Virus record (IMG/VR): IMGVR_UViG_2541047962_000003
Strand: one strand, 5' to 3'
DNA: 41,648 nt
Source: a virus
Taxonomy: Duplodnaviria > Heunggongvirae > Uroviricota > Caudoviricetes
Of the stretch, positions 2,578-39,779 are shown one piece after another (within the stretch, counting starts at the first letter, position 1; each line of letters starts with the position of its first letter). The translations under genes were made by a program, and so were the position numbers. A model generated the notes under the pieces. That model searched no databases, was not told where the DNA came from, and saw only the letters and a list, made by a program, of their open reading frames with translations.

Positions 2578-3151
2578 CGTCCGGCGCTGTGCTGGTATCT
2601 GTTGCCGTCACCGCGTCAATGTAATCCAGCACAGCGTTAAGTCGGGTGTTTTCTGGCTGCGTCAGCTTCCGCCCAGCCTGTAATTTCAGTTGAATCAGAC
2701 TGATGGAAGCCATTGCAGCATCAATCAGCGACTGGCGCTGTGCTTCTGCCGCTTCTACTGCGGCGCTATGCTGTGCCTCGGTATCGGTCACCCATTTCTC
2801 ACCATCCCATTTATCGTATGGCGTTAATGGGGCGATAGTGGTTGTATTTTCGGGGTAATCACCCGGAGTTGTGATTTCTTTGGCGTCTCCCGTTTCGGTG
2901 TTATAGACGATTTCTCCGCGATGGTCTGGCACATATTCCCATGAGTTTAAATCCGCAGAGCGGCAGATGGCATAACCAGCTTTATATGTTCCTGGTGCAT
3001 CTAAACAGGAACATGCCGGAATACCGACACCAACAGCAAGATATTCAGTTGATGTGGAAATATATTCTCGTGTTTCACCATTATAATTATAGACAGTAAT
3101 ATCCCCCGCCTTCGTGGCAATAAACTCGCTATTTAATACGGCATTATCCAT
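2549..3151 (-). CDS. Tail-fibre assembly protein (expressed cassette)
   Basis: 200 aa, immediately downstream of the tail-fibre gene. Tfa-like. Confidence 0.75.
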   Translation of the reverse strand: MDNAVLNSEFIATKAGDITVYNYNGETREYISTSTEYLAVGVGIPACSCLDAPGTYKAGYAICRSADLNSWEYVPDHRGEIVYNTETGDAKEITTPGDYPENTTTIAPLTPYDKWDGEKWVTDTEAQHSAAVEAAEAQRQSLIDAAMASISLIQLKLQAGRKLTQPENTRLNAVLDYIDAVTATDTSTAPDVIWPELPEA

Positions 3152-4014
3152 TATGCAGCCCTCACGATGTAATTAAATGAAAGGTTACGAGGGCGCATTG
3201 ATATCCATGCCCCGGTAAAATTATCCTCCGCTGTCCTTTGAGTACCCGTTATGGAGTTATCTGCTGATGCAGGAACATAATCGCTATTATTTCCTGCTTT
3301 AGGATTAGCTGGGTTTCCAACAGTTATAACAGAATCAGCAGTAGCAAAAGCGATACCTACTTTGACATTAGTATTCAGATCGTAACCGTAATAATCCTGC
3401 AAAGCTGTACGAATAAATGTTGCAGCCTGACCACTTAGCAATGAACGCCCCGTATCAATCCCTCTAGAATCATCCCAGCCACGAATAAACTCACCACGTA
3501 AATCAGGCAATTTATTTGTCGGGTAAGCCTTTGCCAGTTCCGGGTATTCTTCAGCAGAAAAAGCTGCTCCGTTGCATTTCAGCCAGCCTGTTGGAGGTGT
3601 CTCTGAAGGCCACGGAACAGGTGCACCAACAGGTAATGCTGAACCTTCTCCCAAACCAAGGTTTTCGAGAGCCGTTTTCACCGTGCCATCCGATTTGATA
3701 TCACCAAACGGATTCTTGCGGCTCAGGTATTCAACAGCAAACCCCGATCCCAGCAATTCAACAAAACCGGGCAGATCACCATTATCAAGCACATCCCGTT
3801 GCGTTTTATCACTTACAAACTGGGCCAGAGCTGCAGCAATAAAGCTGGCCTGCCGAATAACCTTATTGACTTGCGCACTGGAGGCTTTCCCTGCTGTAAA
3901 TCCAGATAAAAGCGCAGGCAACGCTTCCCATTCCTCCTGCGACATAACATTGGCATTTTTACCCGTTGCGAATGCTTTAAAGTCATTTTTTGCCATCAGA
4001 GTAATACTCCCCAT
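3151..4014 (-). CDS. Tail-fibre protein (constant N-terminal part joined to a variable C-terminal part at the crossover site)
   Basis: 287 aa. The crossover site lies in-frame within ...[11 protein letters not shown].... e14 StfP-like arrangement. Confidence 0.75.
3645..3670. repeat. Invertase crossover site, distal, inside the tail-fibre gene
   Basis: CTTCTCCCAAACCAAGGTTTTCGAGA. Inverted copy of the 1788-1814 site. Confidence 0.65.
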
Positions 4015-25752: not shown

Positions 25753-26175
25753 TTATGCCGCCGAGCAGCTCCTACGCAAAGTCCTGATAGCCTGAGGCTT
25801 TGACTGAACCGACTGATCCATTTCGAGCACCACATCCAGCATGGCTAAGCAACCGTCAATAAATCCCTCTGCCGCCTGAAGCCTCTTCAGAACGTGGGTG
25901 TGAGATACGCCGAGCTTCTCACCCATCGCCCGCACGGGCATGGCCTGGACGTAATGCCACTCAAGGAGCGTGCACAGATACGGATCTTTTTTCTTCAGGC
26001 AGCTCATAGCGGAGTTGATGATAAGACCGTCATTGTCACTGCATTTCAGCCTTCCAGACTGCGTCGCGGGTAGCAGATTCTTAAACCCGGCTGCAACAGG
26101 AGGAAAGTAGACGCTACCACCTTCACTCGCTGCCCAGCCACCCCAGCGCTCTAAAACCTGTTGAATATTACGCAT
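25753..26175 (-). CDS. Q: Late-gene antiterminator Q (phage 82/21 type)
   Basis: 140 aa. N-terminal ...VLERWGGWAA... motif characteristic of this Q family as recalled. Located upstream of the lysis cassette. Confidence 0.75.
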   Translation of the reverse strand: MRNIQQVLERWGGWAASEGGSVYFPPVAAGFKNLLPATQSGRLKCSDNDGLIINSAMSCLKKKDPYLCTLLEWHYVQAMPVRAMGEKLGVSHTHVLKRLQAAEGFIDGCLAMLDVVLEMDQSVQSKPQAIRTLRRSCSAA

Positions 26176-26299
26176 AGCTCTGACCTCTACGTTTTGCTAC
26201 GAAAAAATTTTCTGAGAACCACGTCTGTTTATCCGTGGGTGTGGATAACGCAGTTCCGATTCGCTTATTACACGCTGTTATGTGCAAAAAATTCCTTGT

Positions 26300-26490
26300 T
26301 CGGCCTGTACCAACCTGTACCCACCTGTACCAGCTCTTTTCAAACCTTTTCCCCAAGCGACTTATACATATATATGGGGTTCTTAGTAATTAGGTTGGTA
26401 CAGATGGTACAGTTGGTACTGACCTTTAAATTCAATTAGTTAAAATGTACCAACCTCTATTTTGAGGCTGGTACAGGTTGGGACACCGCC
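26300..26490. repeat. Putative replication origin: cluster of 10-bp iterons (TGTACCAACC / GGTTGGTACA) in both orientations flanking an AT-rich core
   Basis: Direct repeats TGTACCAACC, TGTACCCACC, TGTACCAGCT at 26306-26335. AT-rich stretch 26336-26393. Inverted copies GGTTGGTACA, GATGGTACA, GTTGGTAC at 26394-26419. Further copies at 26446-26455 and 26467-26485. Confidence 0.6.
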
Positions 26491-28649
26491 TCAAAAATTC
26501 GAGTCATTTTCCCCCCAATTCGCCTTTGGGCACGCTTATACCCGCAATTTTGCAAAACATTACTAATTCGCATTTCTTCGCGTTTTCCGATGCGGTCAGG
26601 ATTTAGCCCAATCGCATCACGCAAAACATCACTTGCGCGTAAAAATTCGCAATCTCGCGGAAGTTCATTAGTCATCAGGTCTGGCGTGTCGAGCCATTTC
26701 TCTACCGTTTCAAGCCAAGCATCCTTGATGGTGTACTGTTCATGGACACTCGCTGCCAGTTGTTCAGCCTCACGGAACTGGATACCCCCCAGACGCTGAA
26801 ACACCTCACGAGCCTCAGCCCAAAGTAAAAGGAGATCTCTTTTTATCGCTTTCACGTCGACTTTCGACACTTCCACGGGGAGCCAGCGACGGTTACCAGT
26901 CTTGTCCGCAAGGAATTCGTCCTCATTGGTGGTACCAACGAACACCAGGCGACGAGGAAACTGGGTGGCGAACTCCCGGTATTTCGGGATCCAGTTTTCG
27001 TGAGTACGCGTCACAAACGCTTTGATTGACTCCAGCTCTTTGGTATTAAGTCCGCGCAGTTCACCAATCTCTGCCACCAGCCGACCACGCATTTTTCGAG
27101 CGAGATCATCGTCTTTTTCGGCAAAAGAGATTTCAGTAAAAAACGCAGGATCAGGGCTCAGTGCCTCCACTCCGGAAGACTTACCGCAGCCCTGCGGACC
27201 AACGAGGATCGGCACCATATCCGCTTTGATGCCTGGCTCCAGTACTCGCCCCGCCAACGCGGTCCACATGTACATAGACACCGCACGGGTATAAGGCGTG
27301 TCGGCGGTACCGAAGTGCGTATGGTAGAAACATTCGATGCGCGGCACCCCATCCCACTCCAGTCCGTTCAGCCAGGCGATCGCTGAATCGAATGGTTGTT
27401 CATCGGCTGCAAGTAACACCACATCGCGAATAAGTTCACGGCCAACAGGTTTAAATCCCCGCTTTTCCATCGTGATGCGCAGGCGCGCATAATCCGCATC
27501 GGTGAATGCCCGCCATTGTCCGGATCCTGCCGGGGCAAACATGATTTCGTCGCGGAACAGGTCAAAGCGAATATCGATGTCCACAAAATCAGGGCGTACT
27601 ACTGCTTTGGCTGCGTTGCTGATGGTTGCCTCGATACGCCCCCATTTATCACGCTCGAAAGCAGGCAGCGGTAAAGGTTCCGCCACTTCGGTGCTGGTCA
27701 GATCTTCGAAATCGTCGTTGCGGATCCCGATGGCATTAAGGAAATCTCCGTCATCACGATGCGCACAACTGGCATGCAGGCATTTAAAATGCCCCTGCTC
27801 AAAGCCCGCGGTTCCCGCAGGAAAATAAACTGTGCTTGTTGGATCGCCCCCGCTACTGTGGCCGTCTTCAAACGGACAGCGGATATATCGTTCACCATTT
27901 GCACCATCCAGCAGCGTCCAGCCATTGGCATCAAGATATTCAGCTGTATCATCCGTCGCGCCGGGCGTGAATGCTGATCGGTCGCGCATCTTCGTGTTGC
28001 CCGCTTCGGTGGTTACCGACACAGGGAGTTGTTCAGCCAGGCGCTGCCACAGCGTTTCAAGCTGCTCACCAGTAATAGCCGGAGGTTCATCCGGCAAACC
28101 GCCGTCCCATTCAATACGCGCGCCGCTGCTGTGCGTACCGCAGGCAACGAACTGCTGCCCGTTCGCCAGCAACTCGATAATGCCCATATCCCCCGCCAGG
28201 CGATGGATACGCTTACGGAAATCACCATCAACGGCCAGCAGATACAGACACTTATTACTGTTTGCTCGCCAGCGTCGTGGCGGCAACTCACCCAGAAGTT
28301 GCACAAGCGTTTTACGAATATCTGCCTGAATGTCTTCATCTTCGCTATCACAGTCCAGCGCCAGCCAGCCATGGCCTGTACGCACGCAGATGCCATAATC
28401 CGGTTCATTCGACCAGCGGGCAAAATCATGCTCAGTAACAACATGCCCGGTCCATTGAGCAATACCGGTGACCTGGCGGTCCCGGTTATAGCGACTCGGC
28501 GTCTTACCCAACGCTTTCAGTTTACTATCAGGGGATATGGTCGCACCGGGGTTACATACAACTGGCAGAAGATGATCAGTTCTCCCCAATACCAGGTCGA
28601 AATGAAACCACTCATCAGGCGTAGCTCCCCATGGTTTGCTATCGGACAT
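26457..28649 (-). CDS. DNA primase/helicase (D5/P4-alpha-like, with Walker A motif)
   Basis: 730 aa. ...VGPQGCGKSS... P-loop in the C-terminal half. Translationally coupled to the cro-like gene. Confidence 0.8.
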   Translation of the reverse strand: MSDSKPWGATPDEWFHFDLVLGRTDHLLPVVCNPGATISPDSKLKALGKTPSRYNRDRQVTGIAQWTGHVVTEHDFARWSNEPDYGICVRTGHGWLALDCDSEDEDIQADIRKTLVQLLGELPPRRWRANSNKCLYLLAVDGDFRKRIHRLAGDMGIIELLANGQQFVACGTHSSGARIEWDGGLPDEPPAITGEQLETLWQRLAEQLPVSVTTEAGNTKMRDRSAFTPGATDDTAEYLDANGWTLLDGANGERYIRCPFEDGHSSGGDPTSTVYFPAGTAGFEQGHFKCLHASCAHRDDGDFLNAIGIRNDDFEDLTSTEVAEPLPLPAFERDKWGRIEATISNAAKAVVRPDFVDIDIRFDLFRDEIMFAPAGSGQWRAFTDADYARLRITMEKRGFKPVGRELIRDVVLLAADEQPFDSAIAWLNGLEWDGVPRIECFYHTHFGTADTPYTRAVSMYMWTALAGRVLEPGIKADMVPILVGPQGCGKSSGVEALSPDPAFFTEISFAEKDDDLARKMRGRLVAEIGELRGLNTKELESIKAFVTRTHENWIPKYREFATQFPRRLVFVGTTNEDEFLADKTGNRRWLPVEVSKVDVKAIKRDLLLLWAEAREVFQRLGGIQFREAEQLAASVHEQYTIKDAWLETVEKWLDTPDLMTNELPRDCEFLRASDVLRDAIGLNPDRIGKREEMRISNVLQNCGYKRAQRRIGGKMTRIFEAVSQPVPASK

Positions 28650-28652
28650 GGG

Positions 28653-28865
28653 TTAAGCCTTTTTATCGTTTTGTGAGCCATACAACAGCCAATTAGGGTC
28701 GCAATCCAATGCTATAGACATTTCAAGAAGATAACGTGGCCGAGCAATAACACCACTTTCAATTCTGTTTATTGCCTGCTGGCTCACTCCTGTGAGCTCA
28801 GCCAACGTAACTTGCGTCATTTTGAGTTCTTTACGTCGTTCTTTTACTCGGGTCGCTAAGGTCAT
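28653..28865 (-). CDS. cro: Cro-like helix-turn-helix regulator
   Basis: About 70 aa. ...QVTLAELTGVSQQAINRIE... helix-turn-helix. ATG at 28865 preceded by GAGGTG. Divergent from the CI gene. Confidence 0.7.
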   Translation of the reverse strand: MTLATRVKERRKELKMTQVTLAELTGVSQQAINRIESGVIARPRYLLEMSIALDCDPNWLLYGSQNDKKA

Positions 28866-28883
28866 TGCTTTCACCTCATACAA

Positions 28884-28985: not shown

Positions 28986-29609
28986 ATGTCTCTCGCAGCC
29001 CGTTTTAAAGCACGTCGTTTGGAATTAGGAATGACTCAAGTGGAAGTAGCGAATTCTGCAGGGGTTAGCCAACAATCCATAGAATCCATCGAAAGTGGAC
29101 GAACCAGAAAGCCACGCAATCTTCTGGATCTGGCTAAGGCCTTGAAATGTAGCCCAGACTGGCTACTGAACGGTAAAAATATTATGCCTCTCGCGGAGAT
29201 AAGTACCAGACGCATACCTATATTAAGTTACGTTCAGGCAGGAGAGCTTACAGAAGCAAGAGACATAACAGATCTGACAGGGGAATTTGAATATATTTTG
29301 GCAGACTCTGACATTCCAGAAACATGCTTCGCATTACGTATCGATGGCGACAGCATGCAACCAGAGTTTAAAGAAGGAGACATTGTTATCATCGATCCTG
29401 ATCTATGTCCTGCACCAGGGGAGTTTGTTGTCGCCAAAAACGACGGTCACGAAGCTACATTTAAAAAATACCGTCCATTAGGAATCGGCATCGACGACTT
29501 TGAATTAATCCCCCTAAATCCTGATTACCCTATTTTTCGTAGTGCAGATATGAACTTACAGATCATAGGTGTAATGATCGAACACCGTATTTACCGCCGT
29601 AAACGTTAG
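28986..29609 (+). CDS. cI: CI-type repressor (N-terminal helix-turn-helix plus C-terminal LexA/S24-like autocleavage domain)
   Basis: ...QVEVANSAGVSQQSIESIE... helix-turn-helix and ...GDSMQPEF..GDIVIIDP...KK... in the C-terminal domain. ATG at 28986 preceded by GAAGGA. Confidence 0.85.
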   Translation: MSLAARFKARRLELGMTQVEVANSAGVSQQSIESIESGRTRKPRNLLDLAKALKCSPDWLLNGKNIMPLAEISTRRIPILSYVQAGELTEARDITDLTGEFEYILADSDIPETCFALRIDGDSMQPEFKEGDIVIIDPDLCPAPGEFVVAKNDGHEATFKKYRPLGIGIDDFELIPLNPDYPIFRSADMNLQIIGVMIEHRIYRRKR

Positions 29610-29931
29610 TATTCCCACCGTAAATATCGGGAGGCGTAACAGCCTCCCTTACCCCATTTGTAAAGTCTTACAAATTAAATTCACTTAAATATCAATAAAG
29701 TAGTATTCACACCCCACAAAATACCACATTTGTGGTTTACACAATACAACTCAAATTGTATCTTTAGCCACAAGTCGAACGGCGCGACTCTAAACCATGC
29801 GTCGGGACCGTGGCGGGACAGGATGTCGGCAATACGGGTCAGTAAGTTCCCTTTGGGGTGCGGCGAAGCACTGTCTACTGATACAAGTCGAAGCTGCCGA
29901 ACCACCAAAGTGAACTGAATGAGGAAACGGC

Positions 29932-30126
29932 GTGAAAACGTATAAACCGCTCAAAGGTGAATGCCCTGCTTGCCAAACACAGCTTCAGACACCAAAGCCA
30001 AAACGATACCAAATCAACGAATGTTATGAGCACTGCCCTGGATGTGGTGCTTTCCTGCATACCATTGCAACGCACTGGCGTGTCCGCTTCAACCTTGTGG
30101 TACCACGTACGCACAATACCAACTGA
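29932..30126 (+). CDS. Small zinc-ribbon protein (64 aa, two CxxC pairs)
   Basis: GTG start preceded by GAGGAAA. CPAC...CPGC motifs. Followed by a strong terminator. Confidence 0.45.
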   Translation: MKTYKPLKGECPACQTQLQTPKPKRYQINECYEHCPGCGAFLHTIATHWRVRFNLVVPRTHNTN

Positions 30127-30157
30127 ATCATCCATGTAATTGCTGTGTGTAGTCTTT

Positions 30158-30183
30158 GCCCGCCGCAAGTGACGGGCTTTTTT
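30158..30183 (+). terminator. Rho-independent terminator
   Basis: GCCCG-ccgcaagtga-CGGGC followed by TTTTTT. Confidence 0.65.
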
Positions 30184-30242
30184 ATGTCTGAAAGCGCACT
30201 CGCAACAGCGCGCTCCCCGATATGAAAAAAGGAATACAACCG

Positions 30243-30392
30243 ATGAAACCTGAACACCTCTATCGACTGACGGGGCGCGATGTTCTCCGTTATCGCCGTA
30301 AAAACTTCGATTTGATGACCGGTCTGGCCGTTGCCACTGCGCTCGGTCTGATCATCACTTTCATTCTCCTTGTAGCGAGGACCACAGTATGA
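30243..30392 (+). CDS. Small membrane protein (49 aa, C-terminal transmembrane helix); below the ORF-track size cutoff
   Basis: Hand-translated as [57 protein letters not shown] ribosome-binding site. Stop overlaps the next start. Confidence 0.4.
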   Translation: MKPEHLYRLTGRDVLRYRRKNFDLMTGLAVATALGLIITFILLVARTTV

Positions 30393-31291
30393 GTTTAGAA
30401 ACCAGTCTCGAACTTAATAATCAACTTCTGGCACAACATAATGCGCTGCTTGAACGTCTTATCCGCACAATGGCATCAGGTATTGTTATGCATCCTGACA
30501 CGATTTCACGAGTGCAGGAATGTCGGGATACAGCAACTGAAACTGAAAATATGTCAGCGGCAATGACACTGGATGATCTGGAGTTCAGCGACGTTATCGC
30601 ACTGGCTGGTTTCTACCCGGTAGCCACCCCTATCACAGAAGACATGCTGCAACGTGCTGTTGCCTACCGTGATGCTGAAGGCGATAAACGAGTAGTTCAG
30701 ATTGATGCTCTCGACAGCGCATTGCAGGGCGTCAAACGAGCCAGGGCGCTGCTTAAACCAGCTCTCCTGGACCTGTCCCGTAACATCCTTAAGTTCTGGG
30801 ACGACCTGCCAACCATCGGCGAGCGGCGTGCTTTTGCCGAGCAGCTACTTGATGCACCTGCGGATGGGCGTGATGAAGTTAAGCCGAAAAAGGCCAGTAA
30901 CAAAGATGGAGAACGCACGGGGCCGTTTTACGTCAAAAATGTATCCGGCACAGCAGCCAGTGAACTCCACACCTTACGCAAGTTGAACGAGATGCTGAAA
31001 AAAGGCCATATCGAGATCAACCGTGTTGAGTACCTTCAGCTGCAGGAAGAATTTGCACGCAGAGACGCAGCAAATTCCAGCCAGAATAATGACGCCAAAG
31101 ATGACCATACAATTGATTTCGCGGCACTACGCAAACAAGCTGAAGGGTTGATCCTCCAGTTAGCAAAAGGGGGTTACCGGGCAGAAGCTATTGCAATTCT
31201 GGAAAAACAGGGAGCCAGGAAACTTGGTGAAGTAACGGATGAAAATCTCGCTGAAGTAATCACCCTGGCTGAAAAAGCACTGGAGGGTTAA
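30389..31291 (+). CDS. Hypothetical early protein (300 aa)
   Basis: First large ORF of the + strand early operon. No domain recognised. Confidence 0.55.
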
Positions 31292-31293
31292 TC

Positions 31294-32595
31294 ATGCCAG
31301 ACGTTCATGCACAACTTTCTCCATCATCAGCGCATCGATGGATGCGCTGCCCAGGAAGTCTGGCGCTGGAGGCTACACAACCGGATAAAGAAACAACTTT
31401 TGCAATCGAGGGCACTGCAGCGCACGCGCTTGCTGAAAAAGTTCTACGAAACAGGCAAAGCCATCCGGAACACTACGCCGGATGCAATGTTTCTATGTTT
31501 CTCGGCTCATACCCCCTTCGCGAAAATCCTGATGATACATCTGGCCCACAGGTGGATGATGAAATGGTCGAAGCCGTTGGCCGGTATGTTGATACGGTCT
31601 GGACTCTTGCACAGAATAATGAACTATTGGTTGAACAACGTGTTGATTTCTCACATATAACGGGTGTGGAAGAATCTTTCGGAACTGCCGACGGCATAAT
31701 CATCGCGGGTAACGAATTACAAATCCACGACCTGAAATATGGCAAAGGCGTCCGCATTGATGCAGAACAAAATGAGCAACTACAACTGTATGCTCTGGGT
31801 GCGCTCGAACAATTCAGCATGCTGTATGACTTTGAGACTGTAAGATTATTTATTCACCAGCCAAGGCTCAACCACGTTTCAGAATGGTCGTTAACCGTAC
31901 AGGAACTTCAGTCTTTCGGTGAACGGGCACAGGAGGCCGCAACCAGTGCGATCCTTGTTCTCAATATTGCTGAATGCGAAGGCATTGAGACACTACCGCT
32001 GGAAAACTTCATACCTGGAGAAAAACAGTGCCGCTTCTGTAAAGCAAAAGCTATTTGCACTGCCCAGAAAATGCAGCATTTACAAACAGCGGCCAGCGAT
32101 TTTGAAGATCTGACAAAGCCTGTCAGCGAAATAATCACCAATGCCAGTGCACGTGTACCTCTGTTAACCATTGAGCAGCTTGCGGAGATCTATAGCCAGG
32201 CCGACTTTATTGAATCCTGGCTAAAGGCAGTACGGGACCGGGTTCACAATGAACTCAATGCCGGACATCCGGTACCGGGGTTTAAACTGGTAACAGGAAA
32301 ACAAGGTAACCGGGCCTGGATTGATGAAGAGGCAGCTCGCGCACTTCTGAAGGACCAGTTCAGGTACAAAACTGAAGAAGTATTCGACTTTAAACTTATT
32401 AGTCCCACAAAAGCCGAAAAACTTATCAAAAAGGCCAGTCCGCGCCGTTGGTCAAAAGTCGAGGCACTGATAACACGAGCTGATGGTAAACCCACCGTCG
32501 TTCCCGAGTCAGACCCACGCCCCGCACTCAATATCAACCCTGTAAATGATTTCGACGACGTATCCGACGATACGCTAACCGCAGACCTCATCTGA
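31294..32595 (+). CDS. DUF2800-like PD-(D/E)XK nuclease (Cas4/RecB-like fold)
   Basis: N-terminal ...[15 protein letters not shown]... signature and clustered C-terminal cysteines. Confidence 0.6.
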
Positions 32596-32610
32596 TTTAA
32601 GGAAATACCC

Positions 32611-33159
32611 ATGAAACTGAAGCTGAACAATGTTCGTCTGGCCTTCCCGTCTCTGTTTGAAGCTAAAACAGTAAACGGCGAAGGCGATCCACGTTTCTCC
32701 GCAGTATTTTTAATGTCACCCAAACACCCACAACTGGAAGAAATCCGTAAAGCTATGAAGCAGGTAGCGAAGGAAAAATGGGGGGAGAAGTGGGAGTCCA
32801 TTTATAACCAGCTGGAGAAAAAACTCAATCTGTGCCTGCATGATGGTGATGAAAAAGCAGAGTATGAAGGCTTTCCCGGCAATTTCTTCCTGAACGCTGC
32901 TAACAAAGCGCGCCCAGCTGTTCTTGATCGCGATCGTTCGCCACTAATTCAGGCTGATGGACGTCCCTATGCAGGGTGCTATGTAAACGCCGTTATCGAT
33001 ATCTGGGCACAGGACAATAATTTCGGTAAACGCATTAATGCCTCACTCGGAGGAGTCCAGTTCCTGCGAGACGGCGATGCATTCGCTGGCGGCGGAGTGG
33101 CAAGCGCTGACGATTTCGACGATATCAGCGAAGGTGCTGATGCTGAAGCACTAATTTAA
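32611..33159 (+). CDS. DUF2815-like single-stranded DNA-binding protein
   Basis: 182 aa with acidic C-terminal tail (…DDFDDISEGADAEALI), between the nuclease and polymerase genes. Confidence 0.5.
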   Translation: MKLKLNNVRLAFPSLFEAKTVNGEGDPRFSAVFLMSPKHPQLEEIRKAMKQVAKEKWGEKWESIYNQLEKKLNLCLHDGDEKAEYEGFPGNFFLNAANKARPAVLDRDRSPLIQADGRPYAGCYVNAVIDIWAQDNNFGKRINASLGGVQFLRDGDAFAGGGVASADDFDDISEGADAEALI

Positions 33160-33210
33160 AAATATTCATCCCCCAGCTACGTGCTGGGGTATCTCATGAG
33201 GGAAAGAATA

Positions 33211-33852
33211 ATGTCACAGCCCGTATTAACTAATCACCTTAAAACTCAAATCATCAATAACGCACTTGAGAAAGCGGGTATCCCCAAACGTAAATCAGCA
33301 CTACGAGCTGCTCGTGTTGAATGGGCCGAACGTGTTCGGCTTGCAGCTATCGGGGGCGTAGAGAAAGAAGCTGAAATATTAAAAAATATAAAAAAGATTG
33401 AATCCATGGTAACAAAAATCCCTGATTCATTAAAAACCAATAGTTCTTTAATTCGAAAAGATTGCTGCATATATCTCAATCTGGCTGGAGCCAGAGCAAA
33501 CATTTATTTCAATGGCAACTACAGAGGTTATGAATCAGGAGCCCCCGAGCATATTAATAAAATAGCACCTGCAGAATTTACTCTACTTGGCGAAGATCCT
33601 CTGGTAACGGAGTTTTATAGCTTTGATGCTCTCTACACACAAATTAAAAGTGATGAAACCGAAATCATACAGAACGTCAGCGCGGCTCTAAATAAAGTTC
33701 GGACAGTAAAACGATTACTGGATGTATGGCCCGAAGCTAAAGAACTGCTTCCAACAGACGCACCGCCAGTCCCTTTAGCACCAGCAGTACATCGAGAGAC
33801 ATTAAATGAAATGATAGGCCTTCCTACCAATACAGTGTCTGATACTCAATAA
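33211..33852 (+). CDS. Hypothetical protein, AT-rich
   Basis: ATG at 33211 preceded by GAGGGAAAG. No domain recognised. Confidence 0.5.
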   Translation: MSQPVLTNHLKTQIINNALEKAGIPKRKSALRAARVEWAERVRLAAIGGVEKEAEILKNIKKIESMVTKIPDSLKTNSSLIRKDCCIYLNLAGARANIYFNGNYRGYESGAPEHINKIAPAEFTLLGEDPLVTEFYSFDALYTQIKSDETEIIQNVSAALNKVRTVKRLLDVWPEAKELLPTDAPPVPLAPAVHRETLNEMIGLPTNTVSDTQ

Positions 33853-34535
33853 CAAGGGGGATGCTTATTATATGATTTTGAACGTTTTACAATCTCGTTA
33901 AGAGGCGTGAAATCAAAATCTCTGAATAACACATCAGGATACTTCGCTCTTGCTTTATCCAGCAAACCAGTTAAAGTATTTTTTGTGTTACCCAACATTG
34001 TATTAACCGCCACTACATGTCTAATTTCTGGAGGTTTATCTATACCACCAGAAATTGCTTCATTAAGAACCGACGCCAGTGGGGTTTGTCCCTTACTTGT
34101 TGAATCCCACAGCGTCATTAACAGACGAGCTGCGTCTATAAATAGCTTTTTGTCAGCATTTGGCTTGACAGTAATACCAGAACTACCTGAGCCAGAACCG
34201 GAACGTTCTATTGCTGCACTGGTATCCGATTTCATAGGATTAAATAACGGCAGCTCTGTACAACCGATACGCCGAATGAAATCCTTTGCAACATCTCTAC
34301 CACAGAAAAAAGCCCCTGTACAATTTTCATCAGAGCGTTTTTTAAATGAAAAACAATAGTACTGATCGGTTAACGGATAACCGGAATAACTGGTTTTAGT
34401 TTGTCCAGTAATAAGTTTCAGGTGTGCAACAGGCTGAATAATAAAATCCCGAACTATCGCATCTTTTATGTCGTTACCACGGTGACAATAATATTCAGGT
34501 AATCCATTAGGCTGTCTCTTATTACCCACAGTCAT
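33846..34535 (-). CDS. Hypothetical protein (229 aa) with Cys/His-rich N-terminal region and Ser/Gly linker; antisense to the early operon
   Basis: AT-rich. Convergent with the preceding gene (7-bp overlap). Divergent AT-rich promoter region shared with the polymerase gene. Confidence 0.5.
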   Translation of the reverse strand: MTVGNKRQPNGLPEYYCHRGNDIKDAIVRDFIIQPVAHLKLITGQTKTSYSGYPLTDQYYCFSFKKRSDENCTGAFFCGRDVAKDFIRRIGCTELPLFNPMKSDTSAAIERSGSGSGSSGITVKPNADKKLFIDAARLLMTLWDSTSKGQTPLASVLNEAISGGIDKPPEIRHVVAVNTMLGNTKNTLTGLLDKARAKYPDVLFRDFDFTPLNEIVKRSKSYNKHPPCY

Positions 34536-34596
34536 TAGTTGTCTCCTTTAATTCATGATATCTAGCATTTAACCATATACCATATGAGGATATTTT

Positions 34597-36660
34597 ATGT
34601 CCAATATACTATGGGGCGACCTGGAAACCTATTGTGACATTCCGATCAACAACGGTACCCATGCGTATGCCGAAGGCGTTGAAGTGATGCTTTTCGCATG
34701 GGCTATCAACGACGGGCCAGTAAACGTGTGGGATATCACTGCCGGTGGTGGTATTCCACACGGCTTATACGAAGCAATCGCAGACCCTGAAACCCTGCTT
34801 TATTTCCATAACTCTCACTTCGACCGCACCGTTCTGCGTTATGCAATGCCGCGACTGGCACCGCCAGTCGAACGTTGGCGCGACACGATGGTGCAGGCGC
34901 TGGCGCACGGTCTCCCGGGGTCTCTGGGGGAACTCTGCGAAGTACTAGGCGTCCCGCAAGACAAAGCGAAGGACAAAGAAGGTAAAGCGCTGATCCAGCT
35001 GTTCTGTAAGCCACGCCCGAAAAACAGCAAACTGCGTCGGGCCACCAGTAAAACCCACCCGGAAGAATGGCGGCGCTTTGTTGCTTACGCCGGACTGGAT
35101 ATCGAGGCAATGCGCGAAGTCTATAAACGTCTGCCGAAGTGGAATTATCAGGGGACAGAACTGGCGCTCTGGCATCGTGATCAGCAGATCAATGACCGGG
35201 GCGTCTGCATGGACATGCAACTCGCACGCGCTGCGATCGAAGCGGTAGACCAGGAACAAAAGCGCCTAGCAAAGCGTACACAGGAAATGACTGATGGCGA
35301 AGTGCAGGCAGCCACACAACGAGACGCGTTGATTAAGCACATTGTTGAATCCTACGGTGTGGAGCTACCAGACATGCAACGCAGTACTCTGGAACGTCGT
35401 ATTGCCGACCCCGATTTACCATCTGCCGTGAAAGAACTGCTGGCTATCCGCCTGCAGGCCAGTACTACCAGCACCAGTAAATACAAGGCACTGATGAAAG
35501 GCGTAAGCCACGACGGGCGCTTACGCGGTACGCTACAGTTCTGCGGGGCGTCACGTACCGGTCGTTGGGCCGGACGGCTATTCCAGCCCCAGAACCTTCC
35601 CCGCCCTTCACTAAAACAGGAACAAATAGACGAAGGCATCGAAGCACTGAAAGCCGGATGTGCAGACCTGCTGTTTGACAATATCATGGAACTAACCAGT
35701 TCAGCGTTACGTGGCTGCATTATCGCGCCAACAGGCAAAAAGCTGGTGGTAAGTGACTTGTCGAACATTGAAGGCCGTATGCTGGCATGGCTGGCGGGAG
35801 AAGAATGGAAACTGAATGCATTCAGAGAGTACGACGCCGGAACGGGTCCGGACTTATATAAACTGGCGTATGCAAAAGCTTTCGATATTGCACCAGATGA
35901 TGTTGATAAACACATGCGTCAGATCGGTAAAGTCATGGAACTCGGTCTGGGTTATGGTGGTGGTGTGTCGGCCTTCATCACTTTTGCACTGGTTTACGGT
36001 CTCGATCTCGACGAGCTGGCGAACGCCGCACTACCAAACATTCCCCGCGATGTTATCCGCGAGGCGAAAAGCTGGTACGACGAATCGGTTAAACGCAAGT
36101 CAACCTACGGGCTTTCTGAACGGGTATTTATCGCCTGCGACTCACTTAAACGTCTCTGGCGCAGGGCGCACCCGGCGACCTGCGATTTCTGGTACGAACT
36201 GGAGCGCACCGTCCGCACAGCAATCGCCACACCGCAAAAAACATTGTATTGCGGCTATCTTAAAATCCGACGTGATGGCGCGTGGCTGCGCATACAGCTA
36301 CCATCCGGACGCGCTGTATGCTACCCGTCTCCGGTTATCGAAAAAGGGAATATCACCTACATGGGTGTTAACTCTTATTCGCGTAAATGGCAACGACTCA
36401 AAACCTACGGCGGAAAGCTGGTGGAGAACGTCACCCAGGCAGCCGCCCGCGACGTTCTGGCCGGAAACATGCCGCTTATCGAAGATGCCGGTTACAGCAT
36501 TGTGTTGACGGTACACGACGAGGTGATCACCGAAGCACCTGACACAGAAGATTTCAACGATAAAGCGCTTTCCGCGCTTCTCTCCACTAACCCCGAATGG
36601 GCACCCGATATCCCACTGAACGCTGGCGGTTTTGAGGCGTACCACTACCGTAAGGATTAA
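34597..36660 (+). CDS. Family A DNA polymerase with 3'-5' exonuclease domain
   Basis: ...GDLETYCD... exonuclease motif, ...[16 protein letters not shown]... motif B-like, ...VHDEV... motif C. Confidence 0.85.
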
Positions 36661-36665
36661 CTCCT

Positions 36666-36881
36666 ATGTCATTTAAATACCGGGACAATCCACTTTATTA
36701 CAGGGCCGCAAGGGAGGCTTTGCGACTTGAACAATCCGGCGAATATGACCGGGCAGCGAAGGTCTGGGCAAAAGCCAACCGCGAATCACATCACGAATTG
36801 AATCAGGAATGGAGTGAACGCAGATCTGATTTTTGCCTGATGCAGAATATGCGTGAAAAGCGTAAGGTGGTCGAAGAATGA
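36666..36881 (+). CDS. Small hypothetical protein (71 aa)
   Basis: ORF translationally coupled to the downstream gene. Confidence 0.4.
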   Translation: MSFKYRDNPLYYRAAREALRLEQSGEYDRAAKVWAKANRESHHELNQEWSERRSDFCLMQNMREKRKVVEE

Positions 36882-37177
36882 TCGTTTACGTTGCCGGGCC
36901 GATGAGCGGTTACGAGCAATTTAACCGCCCGGCTTTTCATTCCGCAGCAAAGAGGCTAACGGACAAGGGATATGTTGTGCTTAACCCCGCAACTTTACCC
37001 GATGGTTTGACACAGGCTCAGTACATGGACATCTGCCTCGCCATGCTTCGCTGTGCCGATACGATTTATATGCTCAAAGAGTGGGAGTACTCTGCCGGCG
37101 CACGTGCAGAAAACGCGTTGGCAGAGAAACTGGAATTGAATGTGCTTTTTGAAGAGTGGGATTCAGATGGCCTATGA
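36878..37177 (+). CDS. DUF4406-like (nucleoside 2-deoxyribosyltransferase-like) protein
   Basis: ...VYVAGPMSGYEQFNRPAFHSAAKRL...VLNPA... matches the family signature as recalled. Confidence 0.55.
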   Translation: MIVYVAGPMSGYEQFNRPAFHSAAKRLTDKGYVVLNPATLPDGLTQAQYMDICLAMLRCADTIYMLKEWEYSAGARAENALAEKLELNVLFEEWDSDGL

Positions 37178-37436
37178 ACGTGAAAGCCTTATCGAAAAGC
37201 ACCTCGTCGCTGAAGTGAAAAAAGCTGGCGGAGTGGCCTTTAAGTTTGTATCTCCCGGTCACCGCTCGGTACCGGATCGCATTGTCCTGCTACCCGGTGG
37301 TCGTATCGTTTTCGTTGAATGTAAATCCCCCGGCAAACCACCACGGCCTGACCAGTTGCGCGAGCATGAACGTCTGCGAAAGCTGGGCTTTACCGTGGTA
37401 GTACTGGATAGCAAAAATTTAGAGGGGATATTGTGA
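37167..37436 (+). CDS. VRR-NUC domain nuclease
   Basis: ...GRIVFVECKSPGKPPRPDQ... motif. ATG overlaps the upstream stop. Confidence 0.65.
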   Translation: MAYERESLIEKHLVAEVKKAGGVAFKFVSPGHRSVPDRIVLLPGGRIVFVECKSPGKPPRPDQLREHERLRKLGFTVVVLDSKNLEGIL

Positions 37437-37441
37437 GACAA

Positions 37442-38167
37442 TCATTCTGAGCGATTTTTCTTGAGCTTAGAAGCTTTTAAAAAACATACTTTTAGTTGTT
37501 GTGTTTCTTTTATGCTTACAGGAATTAATTTCCCCTCAATTCCTTCGACACTCATAAATTCAGAGCTATTTTTTTTACAGTTCCCCAAGACAAATTTTCC
37601 GTTATAGCTTTCGATAATATAAGCATCATATTTTTTAGAATAAAAAAGAGGCTCATCTGATAAGTATGCCCATGCCCACCCAAGGACTGAAGGAAGCATT
37701 GCTATGGATATAAAAAACATAACCCCATGAGTTTTGTTTTTTATTCTAAATTCATTCCTAATAAAAACAGATACTGCCCTGACACTGATAGGGCTAATAA
37801 ATCCCAATAGTATTGCTTGGGTAGCCACATCCCTTATGGATTTTTCATAAAGGTATGAGCTACCGCCATATAAATACATTGTCCAGTATGAAAGCAAAGA
37901 GGCCAAAATGAAGAAAAATAAATACACCCCCCATGGAATATTCTTCTCTTCAGTATCAATATGCAGCAAAGCGACTAAGGTGCACAAAAGTCCTAATGCA
38001 ATAACAGAAAACTTAACTATTTCCTCAATCCCAATAGAAATAAAACTTACAGGGAATCCATAAAATGAGCTGTATCCTTTGTAAAAAGAAAAAGCCATAA
38101 AATAAAGGGCGGCCAAGAGAACCGTTGTAATTGATAAATCTTTTACATTCATGATGTTCAAGAGCAC
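37442..38167 (-). CDS. Polytopic membrane protein (241 aa), very AT-rich, antisense to the early operon
   Basis: Four to six hydrophobic helices. Inserted between the VRR-NUC and SNF2 genes on the opposite strand. Confidence 0.55.
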   Translation of the reverse strand: MLLNIMNVKDLSITTVLLAALYFMAFSFYKGYSSFYGFPVSFISIGIEEIVKFSVIALGLLCTLVALLHIDTEEKNIPWGVYLFFFILASLLSYWTMYLYGGSSYLYEKSIRDVATQAILLGFISPISVRAVSVFIRNEFRIKNKTHGVMFFISIAMLPSVLGWAWAYLSDEPLFYSKKYDAYIIESYNGKFVLGNCKKNSSEFMSVEGIEGKLIPVSIKETQQLKVCFLKASKLKKNRSE

Positions 38168-38190
38168 CTTTCTAATCAGGGATTTTCTTC

Positions 38191-39582
38191 ATGATAACTT
38201 TTAAACCACGTCCCTACCAAGATCTCATCATCAATCATCAAATCGAGACCCTGCGCGGCAACATCTGGGCAGGGATGGGGATGGGTAAAACCGTGGCAAC
38301 GCTCACTACGCTGGAAGATCTCTTTATGGCAGGGGCAGAAACACGCCCCGCACTGGTCCTCGCGCCGCTACGCGTTGCAGCAAGCACATGGCCGGATGAA
38401 GCGCTGAAATGGAAGCATCTGCGCAATATCGAGGTACAGCCGATTGTTGGTAATGTCAAAGCGCGCTCTACGGCGCTGGCGAACAGCAACGCAAGCGTGT
38501 TCACCATCAACTACGATAACCTTGTCTGGCTGGTTGAAGAATTGGGAGAACGATGGCCGTTCGGTACTGTCATTCCGGATGAAAGCACCCGGCTAAAATC
38601 CTTCCGGCTGCGAGGTGGTGGTAAGCGCGCGGCGGCGCTGGGCAAAGTGGCGCACAAGTATGTCCGGCGCTGGATAAATCTCACCGGTACGCCAGCACCG
38701 AACGGCCTGGTAGATTTGTGGGGACAATCGTGGTTTGTGGACCTGGGGCAACGTCTCGGGCGCACTTACGGCGCGTTTACCTCACGCTGGTTCAAATCGA
38801 TACAGTTTCCGGGGCAGAGCTGGACCAAACTGGAGCCTTTTGCTCACTCACAGGGTGAAATACAGCGAGCGTTAGCCGATGTGACCCTCTCGCTGGATGC
38901 GACCGACTGGTTCGATATCAAAGACCCCATCCATAACGTAATCCGCGTGGATATGCCGCCGAAGGCCCGTCAGCAGTATCGTGAAATGGAAAAGGAAATG
39001 TTCCTCGAGCTGAATGGCGAAGGCATAGAAGCACCGAACGCCGCGGCAAAGACACTGAAGTGTCTGCAAATCGCCAGCGGCGCAGTATACACAGATGACA
39101 CCGGAAGTTGGTCAGAACTGCATGACACCAAACTACAGGCGCTGGACAGCATACTGACCGAAGCAGCTGGCGCACCTGTGCTGGTTGCTTATCACTGGAA
39201 ACACGATCTTGAACGCTTGCTTAAAGCATTTCCTCGCGGTCGTCACCTCGACCAGGATCCACAGACACTACGTGACTGGAATTCCGGAAAGATTCCTGTT
39301 CTCTTTGCACACCCAGCCAGCGCGGGCCACGGTCTGAACATGCAGGACGGCGGAAACATACTGGTATTTTTCTCACATTGGTGGGACCTGGAGCAGTATC
39401 AGCAAATTATTGAACGTATCGGCCCAACCAGACAGATACAGGCCGGACACAATCGTCCGGTATTTATTCACCACATTATTGCTGCCGACACTATGGACGA
39501 AATGGTGATGGAGCGGCGCAACTCAAAACGAACAGTGCAGGACATCCTGCTCGATGCCATGAAAAAGAGAGGTATAGCATGA
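38191..39582 (+). CDS. SNF2-family helicase/ATPase
   Basis: ...GMGMGKT... Walker A and ...DESTRLK... motif II. Confidence 0.8.
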   Translation: MITFKPRPYQDLIINHQIETLRGNIWAGMGMGKTVATLTTLEDLFMAGAETRPALVLAPLRVAASTWPDEALKWKHLRNIEVQPIVGNVKARSTALANSNASVFTINYDNLVWLVEELGERWPFGTVIPDESTRLKSFRLRGGGKRAAALGKVAHKYVRRWINLTGTPAPNGLVDLWGQSWFVDLGQRLGRTYGAFTSRWFKSIQFPGQSWTKLEPFAHSQGEIQRALADVTLSLDATDWFDIKDPIHNVIRVDMPPKARQQYREMEKEMFLELNGEGIEAPNAAAKTLKCLQIASGAVYTDDTGSWSELHDTKLQALDSILTEAAGAPVLVAYHWKHDLERLLKAFPRGRHLDQDPQTLRDWNSGKIPVLFAHPASAGHGLNMQDGGNILVFFSHWWDLEQYQQIIERIGPTRQIQAGHNRPVFIHHIIAADTMDEMVMERRNSKRTVQDILLDAMKKRGIA

Positions 39583-39779
39583 GCGAGAAACCCGACGATT
39601 TACTCACCCCGGATGAAGTATGCCAAAAGTTAGGTATTACACAGAAAACGCTATGTGAGTGGAATATTAAGCATCGTCATCGGGCTATCCTGGCACCAAT
39701 TCGTTTCAGTGCAAAAGTAGTTCGTTATGAGCGCCGAAATGTCGACGCTTTTATTCAAAAATGTCGCAGCCAGTATTAA
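39579..39779 (+). CDS. Excisionase / AlpA-like helix-turn-helix protein
   Basis: 66 aa. ...LLTPDEVCQKLGITQKTLCEW... Converges on the integrase gene. Confidence 0.55.
   Translation: MSEKPDDLLTPDEVCQKLGITQKTLCEWNIKHRHRAILAPIRFSAKVVRYERRNVDAFIQKCRSQY

Follow-up and report, generated by a model that had tools for sequence, protein, structure and literature searches.

We analyzed a window of 41,648 nucleotides, the whole stretch of viral DNA available to us, and found it to be an Escherichia coli prophage that is 100% identical to the sequence of strain FDAARGOS_144, adjoins yfhL, and is present in 141 of 5,426 complete E. coli genomes. The prophage is a SEN34-like temperate myovirus: the window contains terminase, portal, capsid, sheath, tube, baseplate, and lysis genes, amounting to a full prophage, and its virion genes share 97.7% identity with the corresponding genes of vB_EcoM-611R5, an induced phage. 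An operon consisting of a cro-like gene, a primase-helicase gene, and the antiterminator gene Q occupies one strand, with a cI/LexA-like repressor gene divergent from it on the plus strand, and no O or P homologue was found in the window. The primase-helicase gene is separated from Q by a gap of 281 bp, and it is around this gap that a cluster of short repeats is located. The preliminary description had placed the cluster downstream of the primase-helicase gene and upstream of Q, and this is its position in the direction of transcription. A leftward operon at about 29600–39700 (plus strand; L001 24094–33630) encodes a family-A DNA polymerase, DUF2800 and DUF2815 proteins, Nmad5, VRR-NUC, and an SNF2-related protein; as these form a self-contained replication and recombination set, the phage is probably independent of the host replisome.

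Using a motif scan that allowed up to two mismatches, we found nine matches to TGTACCAACC at 26306–26485, in both orientations, which bears out the earlier count of at least eight copies of a 10-bp motif. The copies had been called single-base variants; this is true of the three exact copies and the three with one mismatch, but another three carry two mismatches. The Poisson probability of nine copies within 190 bp is about 4e-16, and the maximum seen in a comparable span among 200 second-order Markov simulations was four copies. Elsewhere the motif behaved as expected by chance: at the same threshold the remaining 41.4 kb contained 18 matches, giving 27 observed for the whole window against 30.6 expected, and there was no second, crr-like cluster in the 41.6-kb window.

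The repeats, here called iterons, extend from 29 bp before the stop codon of the primase-helicase gene to 151 bp after it and are arranged in three groups (Table 1). The copies of the distal array have their ACC ends pointing toward the core, and the proximal array on the other side of the core is inverted relative to the distal one. The core had been described as AT-rich and roughly 60 bp long; the length is close to that, while the AT-richness is only moderate, the window as a whole having a GC content of 49.6%. The core nevertheless holds a 16-nucleotide stretch, CTTATACATATATATG (26361–26376), with 19% GC, and in the orientation of the primase gene it reads TACTAAGAACCCCATATATAT..TAAGTCG.TTGGGGAAAAGGTT. 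The third group forms an inverted repeat around the TAG stop codon of the primase-helicase gene (26457–26459). As noted earlier, the cluster overlaps the 3′ end of the gene: its last nine codons share two iteron copies, the minus-strand copies of the gene-end group, which encode the disordered protein tail SQPVPASK.

Table 1. Features of the repeat region and adjacent genes (coordinates are positions in the window)
Feature	Position	Strand	Description
Q antiterminator gene	25753–26175	-	PF06530, E 5e-42
Conserved TGCAAAAAATT	26283–26293		AATTTTTTGCA in primase orientation; 12–25 bp beyond the last iteron
Distal iteron array	26306–26335	+	Three tandem copies, period 10, starting at 26306, 26316, and 26326: TGTACCAACC, TGTACCCACC, TGTACCAGCT
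Core between inverted arrays	26336–26392		57 bp, 33% GC
Proximal iteron array	26393–26420	-	Three tandem copies, period 9, starting at 26393, 26402, and 26411: GGTTGGTACA, GATGGTACA, GTTGGTAC
Second A/T-rich spacer	26421–26445		20% GC
Gene-end iteron group	26446–26485		One plus-strand copy (26446–26455); two minus-strand copies (26466–26485), period 10, starting at 26466 and 26476
Primase-helicase gene	26457–28649	-	730 aa; VapE PF05272, E 2e-60; Prim-Pol PF09250, E 2e-10
Predicted beta-hairpin wing	26487–26540	-	Codons 704–721; beta2 YKRAQRRI, GG turn, beta3 KMTRIFEA
Predicted C-terminal winged helix	26487–26729	-	Residues 641–721; proposed iteron-binding domain
cro-like HTH gene	28653–28883	-	Precedes the primase-helicase gene in the operon

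The primase-helicase consists of a Prim-Pol domain (residues 53–188), a Cys/His-rich segment, a VapE/SF3-type helicase domain (427–639), and a predicted winged helix. The only solved relative recognizable by sequence was 7PDS, the SaPI1 Rep1-DNA complex, with an E-value of 9e-34 over residues 393–656. An AlphaFold2 model of residues 591–730 gave pLDDT values of 82–89 for residues 641–721 and showed winged-helix topology, with helix 3 at 689–701, beta2 at 704–711, the GG turn, beta3 at 714–721, and then the disordered tail encoded by the two gene-overlapping iterons. Considered alongside proteins P0097, P0103, and P0109, the primase-helicase (26457–28649) has a mosaic make-up: the N-terminal Prim-Pol half differs in some relatives and the helicase half in one, and P3 of phage APSE matches residues 312–726 only.

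Several additional signals are located near the iterons. Read as minus-strand RNA, the inverted iteron pair at the gene end (26446–26475) folds into a 12-bp hairpin of −23.5 kcal/mol (z = −4.7), and the U-run UUUUAACUAAUU directly after it gives the whole the appearance of a terminator separating the early operon from Q; in several relatives the hairpin is likewise followed by a T-run. Apart from this hairpin, promoter and terminator scans stayed at chance level, and the one match to Rfam was far below its gathering score. On the outer side, the conserved element AATTTTTTGCA is possibly the edge of the origin or a promoter element, and AWTTWTTGCR was present at its position in 52 of 93 distinct relatives, representing most iteron types and including one Burkholderiales locus. 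The only two matches to the DnaA-box consensus TTWTNCACA in the whole window were found beside the iterons, at 26240–26248, where the box is perfect (TTATCCACA), and at 26281–26289. We considered DnaA boxes as a defining part of an origin and rejected them: of the 93 distinct relatives, just 26 had a consensus-matching box, and most of these were E. coli loci of types A and B (defined below), so it is not a constant component, and the boxes accompany the E. coli segment upstream of Q. Cumulative GC skew was likewise rejected as an origin signal, since it follows gene orientation and turns near 29–30 kb, at the divergence of cI and cro.

The iteron region also folds strongly as single-stranded DNA (z = −5.4), and a stem-loop origin has been proposed for plasmid pRN1 and phage BIP-1, 3′ of a similar gene (PMC4234260). 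Both observations could be taken to mean that the element is only a cruciform or stem-loop, or else a pac or partition site, and that the repeats are incidental. We regard this as extremely improbable. The fold follows trivially from the inversion of the arrays and is a by-product of it, and the terminase genes lie at a distance of over 2.5 kb. When BIP-1 was considered as a relative through the nearly identical BPP-1, the latter was found to lack iterons and to share 27% identity confined to the Prim-Pol domain; BPP-1 is for these reasons a different family and only distantly related.

To place the repeats in an evolutionary context, we drew relatives from three sources: a set with one genome per species (25 loci, 42–89% identity), IMG/VR (80 loci), and phage records. 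The resulting set of 106 loci comprised E. coli prophage variants, 17 species genomes (Enterobacterales, Orbaceae/Gilliamella, and Burkholderiales), 80 IMG/VR contigs, and the phages APSE-1, YeP4, Caulobacter Jess A, and Acidovorax ACF1. A common layout 3′ of the primase-helicase stop codon was shared by all loci in which the gene was complete at its 3′ end. In primase orientation, two copies at the stop codon are followed by one inverted copy about 20 bp further on, an A/T-rich spacer, two to four tandem copies, the core, which contains both a TATATA stretch and an element resembling GGAAAGG, and finally two to three inverted copies; the gene-end arrangement of two copies plus one inverted copy was found in all relatives.

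While the layout was constant, the iteron motif was not, and about 14 types could be distinguished, among them TGTACCAACC, TGGAACCACC, TGTTACCACC, CTAGACCACC, and AGACAACCT. Within a locus all copies were of one type, the homologous distal arrays of the relatives, for example, being made of their own lineage's motif, and the switch between lineages was thus concerted. In E. coli we found type A, TGTACCAACC, in this window and in L007; type B, TGGAACCACC, in L002, L003, and L004; and type C, TGTTACCACC, in L005 and L006. The E. coli versions of the 500-bp region were 76–82% identical, and their alignment showed nearly constant flanks and core with every repeat copy swapped in concert; among enterobacterial relatives generally, the core sequence was conserved regardless of iteron type.

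The number of copies varied as well. In L003 (E. coli OkiPb01688; 3001–3639), a 139-bp tandem duplication within the origin includes the core and iteron arrays, and L007 (E. coli O8:H8, type A) has one extra 9-bp iteron, a fourth copy in the proximal array; both are consistent with the copy-number variation expected of iteron arrays. The sister phage vB_EcoM-611R5 (L119, 3091–3400) has its own iteron set, with about 10 copies of AGGTGACG between the replication gene and Q, together with a different helicase and C terminus despite its closely similar virion genes, and whole rep-ori modules are exchanged within the SEN34-like phage group. In the Xenorhabdus yunnanensis genome, two related primase-helicase loci (L018 and L021) have different iteron types (TGTAACAACC and TGTAACCACC) and different wings, a pair consistent with distinct replication specificities in co-resident elements. 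In APSE-1 (L113, 2861–3082), the annotated open reading frame "P4" falls, downstream of P3, within the stretch made up of the iterons and the AT-rich core, and is for that reason probably not a real gene; no origin is marked in the APSE phage records that we retrieved.

We compared the iteron types with the ends of the proteins. The six E. coli primase-helicases were 93–99% identical and diverged essentially only from about residue 707, ending in ...GGKMTRIFEAVSQPVPASK in type A, ...GGKKCKVWEPLEPRGTT in type B, and ...EGKLMKVWRRA in type C. As the last nine codons overlap two iterons, a protein difference there is forced by the DNA. The residues that covary with the iterons, 715–719 (MTRIF in this prophage), are outside that overlap, and the AlphaFold2 model places them on beta3, the second strand of the wing; helix 3 was invariant among the enterobacterial proteins. 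Defining the wing 5-mer as the five residues that follow the conserved G-K, we found 28 different 5-mers among the 106 loci, none of them paired with more than one iteron type. After removal of near duplicates, the mutual information between wing and type was 3.34 bits, equal to the full entropy of the types and reached in 0 of 5,000 shuffles. The remainder of the helicase was not informative in this way: in 699 pairs of loci the helicase domains were at least 97% identical (some 100%) and the iterons differed, and identity between helicase domains could be as low as 49% within one iteron type. We also rejected a simple code pairing Trp at wing position 5 with CCACC and Phe or Tyr with CAACC: it fits most types but is broken by APSE-1 (GKVCRVWE with GTAACAACC).

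The same comparisons bear on a possible role in regulation. The cluster separates Q from the last gene of the early set, both genes being on one strand, and its gene-end pair forms a terminator-like hairpin and U-run. On this view, the repeats might be operators of a regulator that gates read-through of the early operon into Q, and so part of the late-gene switch instead of an origin. This prophage (type A) and H10407 (type B), however, encode one and the same Q protein, WP_001244506, and L002 and L004 are both of type B yet differ in their cro and cI genes; the repeats therefore track the end of the primase-helicase and not the neighboring regulators. Furthermore, the gene after the cluster differs among relatives (Q, a small HTH protein, and others), the primase gene keeps the cluster even in phages that have another gene in the place of Q, and the layout fits SaPI and PICI origins. 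We give the regulatory explanation a very small probability, although binding of the initiator at the gene-end hairpin might affect read-through into Q and a secondary regulatory effect of this kind is compatible with the data. Within the sequences compared, the repeat type is fully predicted by the five wing residues and not by Q, cro/cI, or the rest of the helicase.

The wing codons are adjacent to the iterons, within about 60 bp, and some of the covariation could thus represent joint inheritance of one recombination cassette. Taken further, the whole association could be hitchhiking in a short cassette, with another phage or host protein binding the repeats; besides the primase-helicase, the proteins compared across variants were Q, Cro, and cI. 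Plain replacement of a block, however, does not resemble what we observed, namely 8–11 dispersed copies changing in concert around a constant enterobacterial core, and, with about 14 types and several bacterial orders represented, none of the 28 wing variants showed a mismatch. The concerted change and the lack of mismatched pairs argue for selection on the matched pair, and the homologous domain of SaPI Rep is a known iteron binder. Hitchhiking as the full explanation appears highly unlikely.

Taken with the conserved layout, these patterns support the earlier proposal of an iteron-type origin recognized by the adjacent primase-helicase: the region at about 26283–26485 is, on the sequence evidence, very probably the vegetative replication origin of this SEN34-like E. 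coli prophage, with its iterons read by the C-terminal end of the protein whose gene they adjoin. The preliminary description had offered the P4 alpha protein with ori and crr as the analogue. P4 alpha does resemble the present system in that a single polypeptide unites primase, SF3 helicase, and, at its C terminus, a winged-helix domain that binds the origin by recognizing short repeats in both orientations (PMC4234260). The P4 primase is, however, of Toprim type whereas the one here is an AEP Prim-Pol, the helicase here is VapE-like, and P4 needs a second cis site, crr, of which the window has no counterpart. Given the AEP-type primase and the absence of a crr-like second site, SaPI1 Rep is the better analogue, and the P4 comparison gives way to the Pri-Rep-ori arrangement of SaPIs and PICIs.

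As described in PMC9371898, SaPI Reps are initiators and at the same time helicases that load themselves, and they recognize iterons through a C-terminal winged helix; these iterons directly follow the rep gene and form two sets of opposite orientation with an AT-rich region between them. Neither binding nor melting requires ATP in that system, and one hexamer is probably loaded on each side. PICIs of E. coli have a SaPI-like layout, and a pri-rep-ori plasmid replicates (PMC6092414). The prophage shares with these systems an origin region immediately 3′ of the initiator-helicase gene, at least two opposed iterons on each side of the core (three plus-strand and three minus-strand copies here), an SF3/VapE-type initiator homologous to SaPI Reps, and a predicted C-terminal winged helix that would give iteron specificity; the fusion of primase to helicase is as in PriRep5 of SaPI5. 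It differs from the SaPIs in having iterons of 9–10 bp instead of 5–6 bp, a third iteron group that straddles the stop codon, and a specificity that maps to the second wing strand. It also differs from satellite islands such as EcCICFT073 in that the host of the origin is a complete temperate myovirus with its own DNA polymerase; being a complete phage with virion genes, the element is not a PICI.

Other replicons show more partial likeness. ORF904 of the Sulfolobus plasmid pRN1 has Prim-Pol, SF3 helicase, and winged helix in the same order, its origin lies no more than about 170 bp beyond the 3′ end of the gene, and its stop codon is beside a small hairpin (PMC4234260), but that origin consists of a stem-loop, has no iterons, and showed no detectable specific binding. 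As here, the iterons of related lambdoid phages covary with the specificity of the initiator, the two are swapped together as a module, and the origin is a transcribed part of the early rightward operon; the lambda iterons are, in contrast, about 19 bp long and lie within the gene for O, which reads them with its N-terminal domain and recruits the host DnaB via P. Iteron plasmids (RepA, pi, and TrfA) have direct repeats of 17–22 bp, a nonhelicase Rep, and DnaA boxes, whereas the repeats here are short and in both orientations and the initiator is a helicase.

As the element fits each sequence-level feature of the SaPI and PICI origins and is accompanied by a homologous helicase, we infer a SaPI-like series of events. 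The 730-aa primase-helicase would be expressed from the early rightward operon, immediately after cro, and its C-terminal winged helix would bind the 9–10-bp iterons as double-stranded DNA. Judging from which parts vary, the invariant recognition helix, helix 3, may read the invariant ends of the repeats (TG...ACC) and beta3 residues 715–719 the variable middle. The oppositely oriented arrays would set helicase assemblies head to head across the 57-bp core, which would melt at the TATACATATATAT stretch and serve as the site of DNA unwinding and helicase loading. The SF3-type helicase would load itself without a separate loader, the N-terminal AEP primase would make primers, and these would probably be extended by the phage's own family-A DNA polymerase from the leftward operon.

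The principle of an initiator-helicase with cognate iterons 3′ of its own gene is already established. Our search of the literature, the coverage of which was incomplete, found no description of such an origin in SEN34-like, APSE, or YeP4 phages, and the present analysis locates the putative origin for a common group of E. coli prophages and for the ecologically important APSE phages, giving evidence that the "PICI-type" origin layout occurs in true phages too and touching on the question of where satellite replicons come from. We lean, with some caution, toward a broader reading, in which the SaPI/PICI origin design is not exclusive to satellites and is native to a widespread family of true temperate phages, including the SEN34-like E. 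coli prophages, APSE of aphid symbionts, Yersinia YeP4, and Caulobacter and Acidovorax phages, with specificity set in five residues of one wing beta-strand and at least about 14 wing–iteron classes shuffled among otherwise identical helicases. If this is true, a likely driver would be selection against cross-initiation between co-resident prophages, satellite hijacking, or origin-decoy interference, and the 28 natural wing–iteron pairs would constitute a recognition table for retargeting the initiator. The matched wing and iteron variants on near-identical helicases make a swap of specificity, for example from MTRIF to KCKVW, directly testable, and the wing–iteron pairs may be a basis of replication-compatibility groups among prophages.
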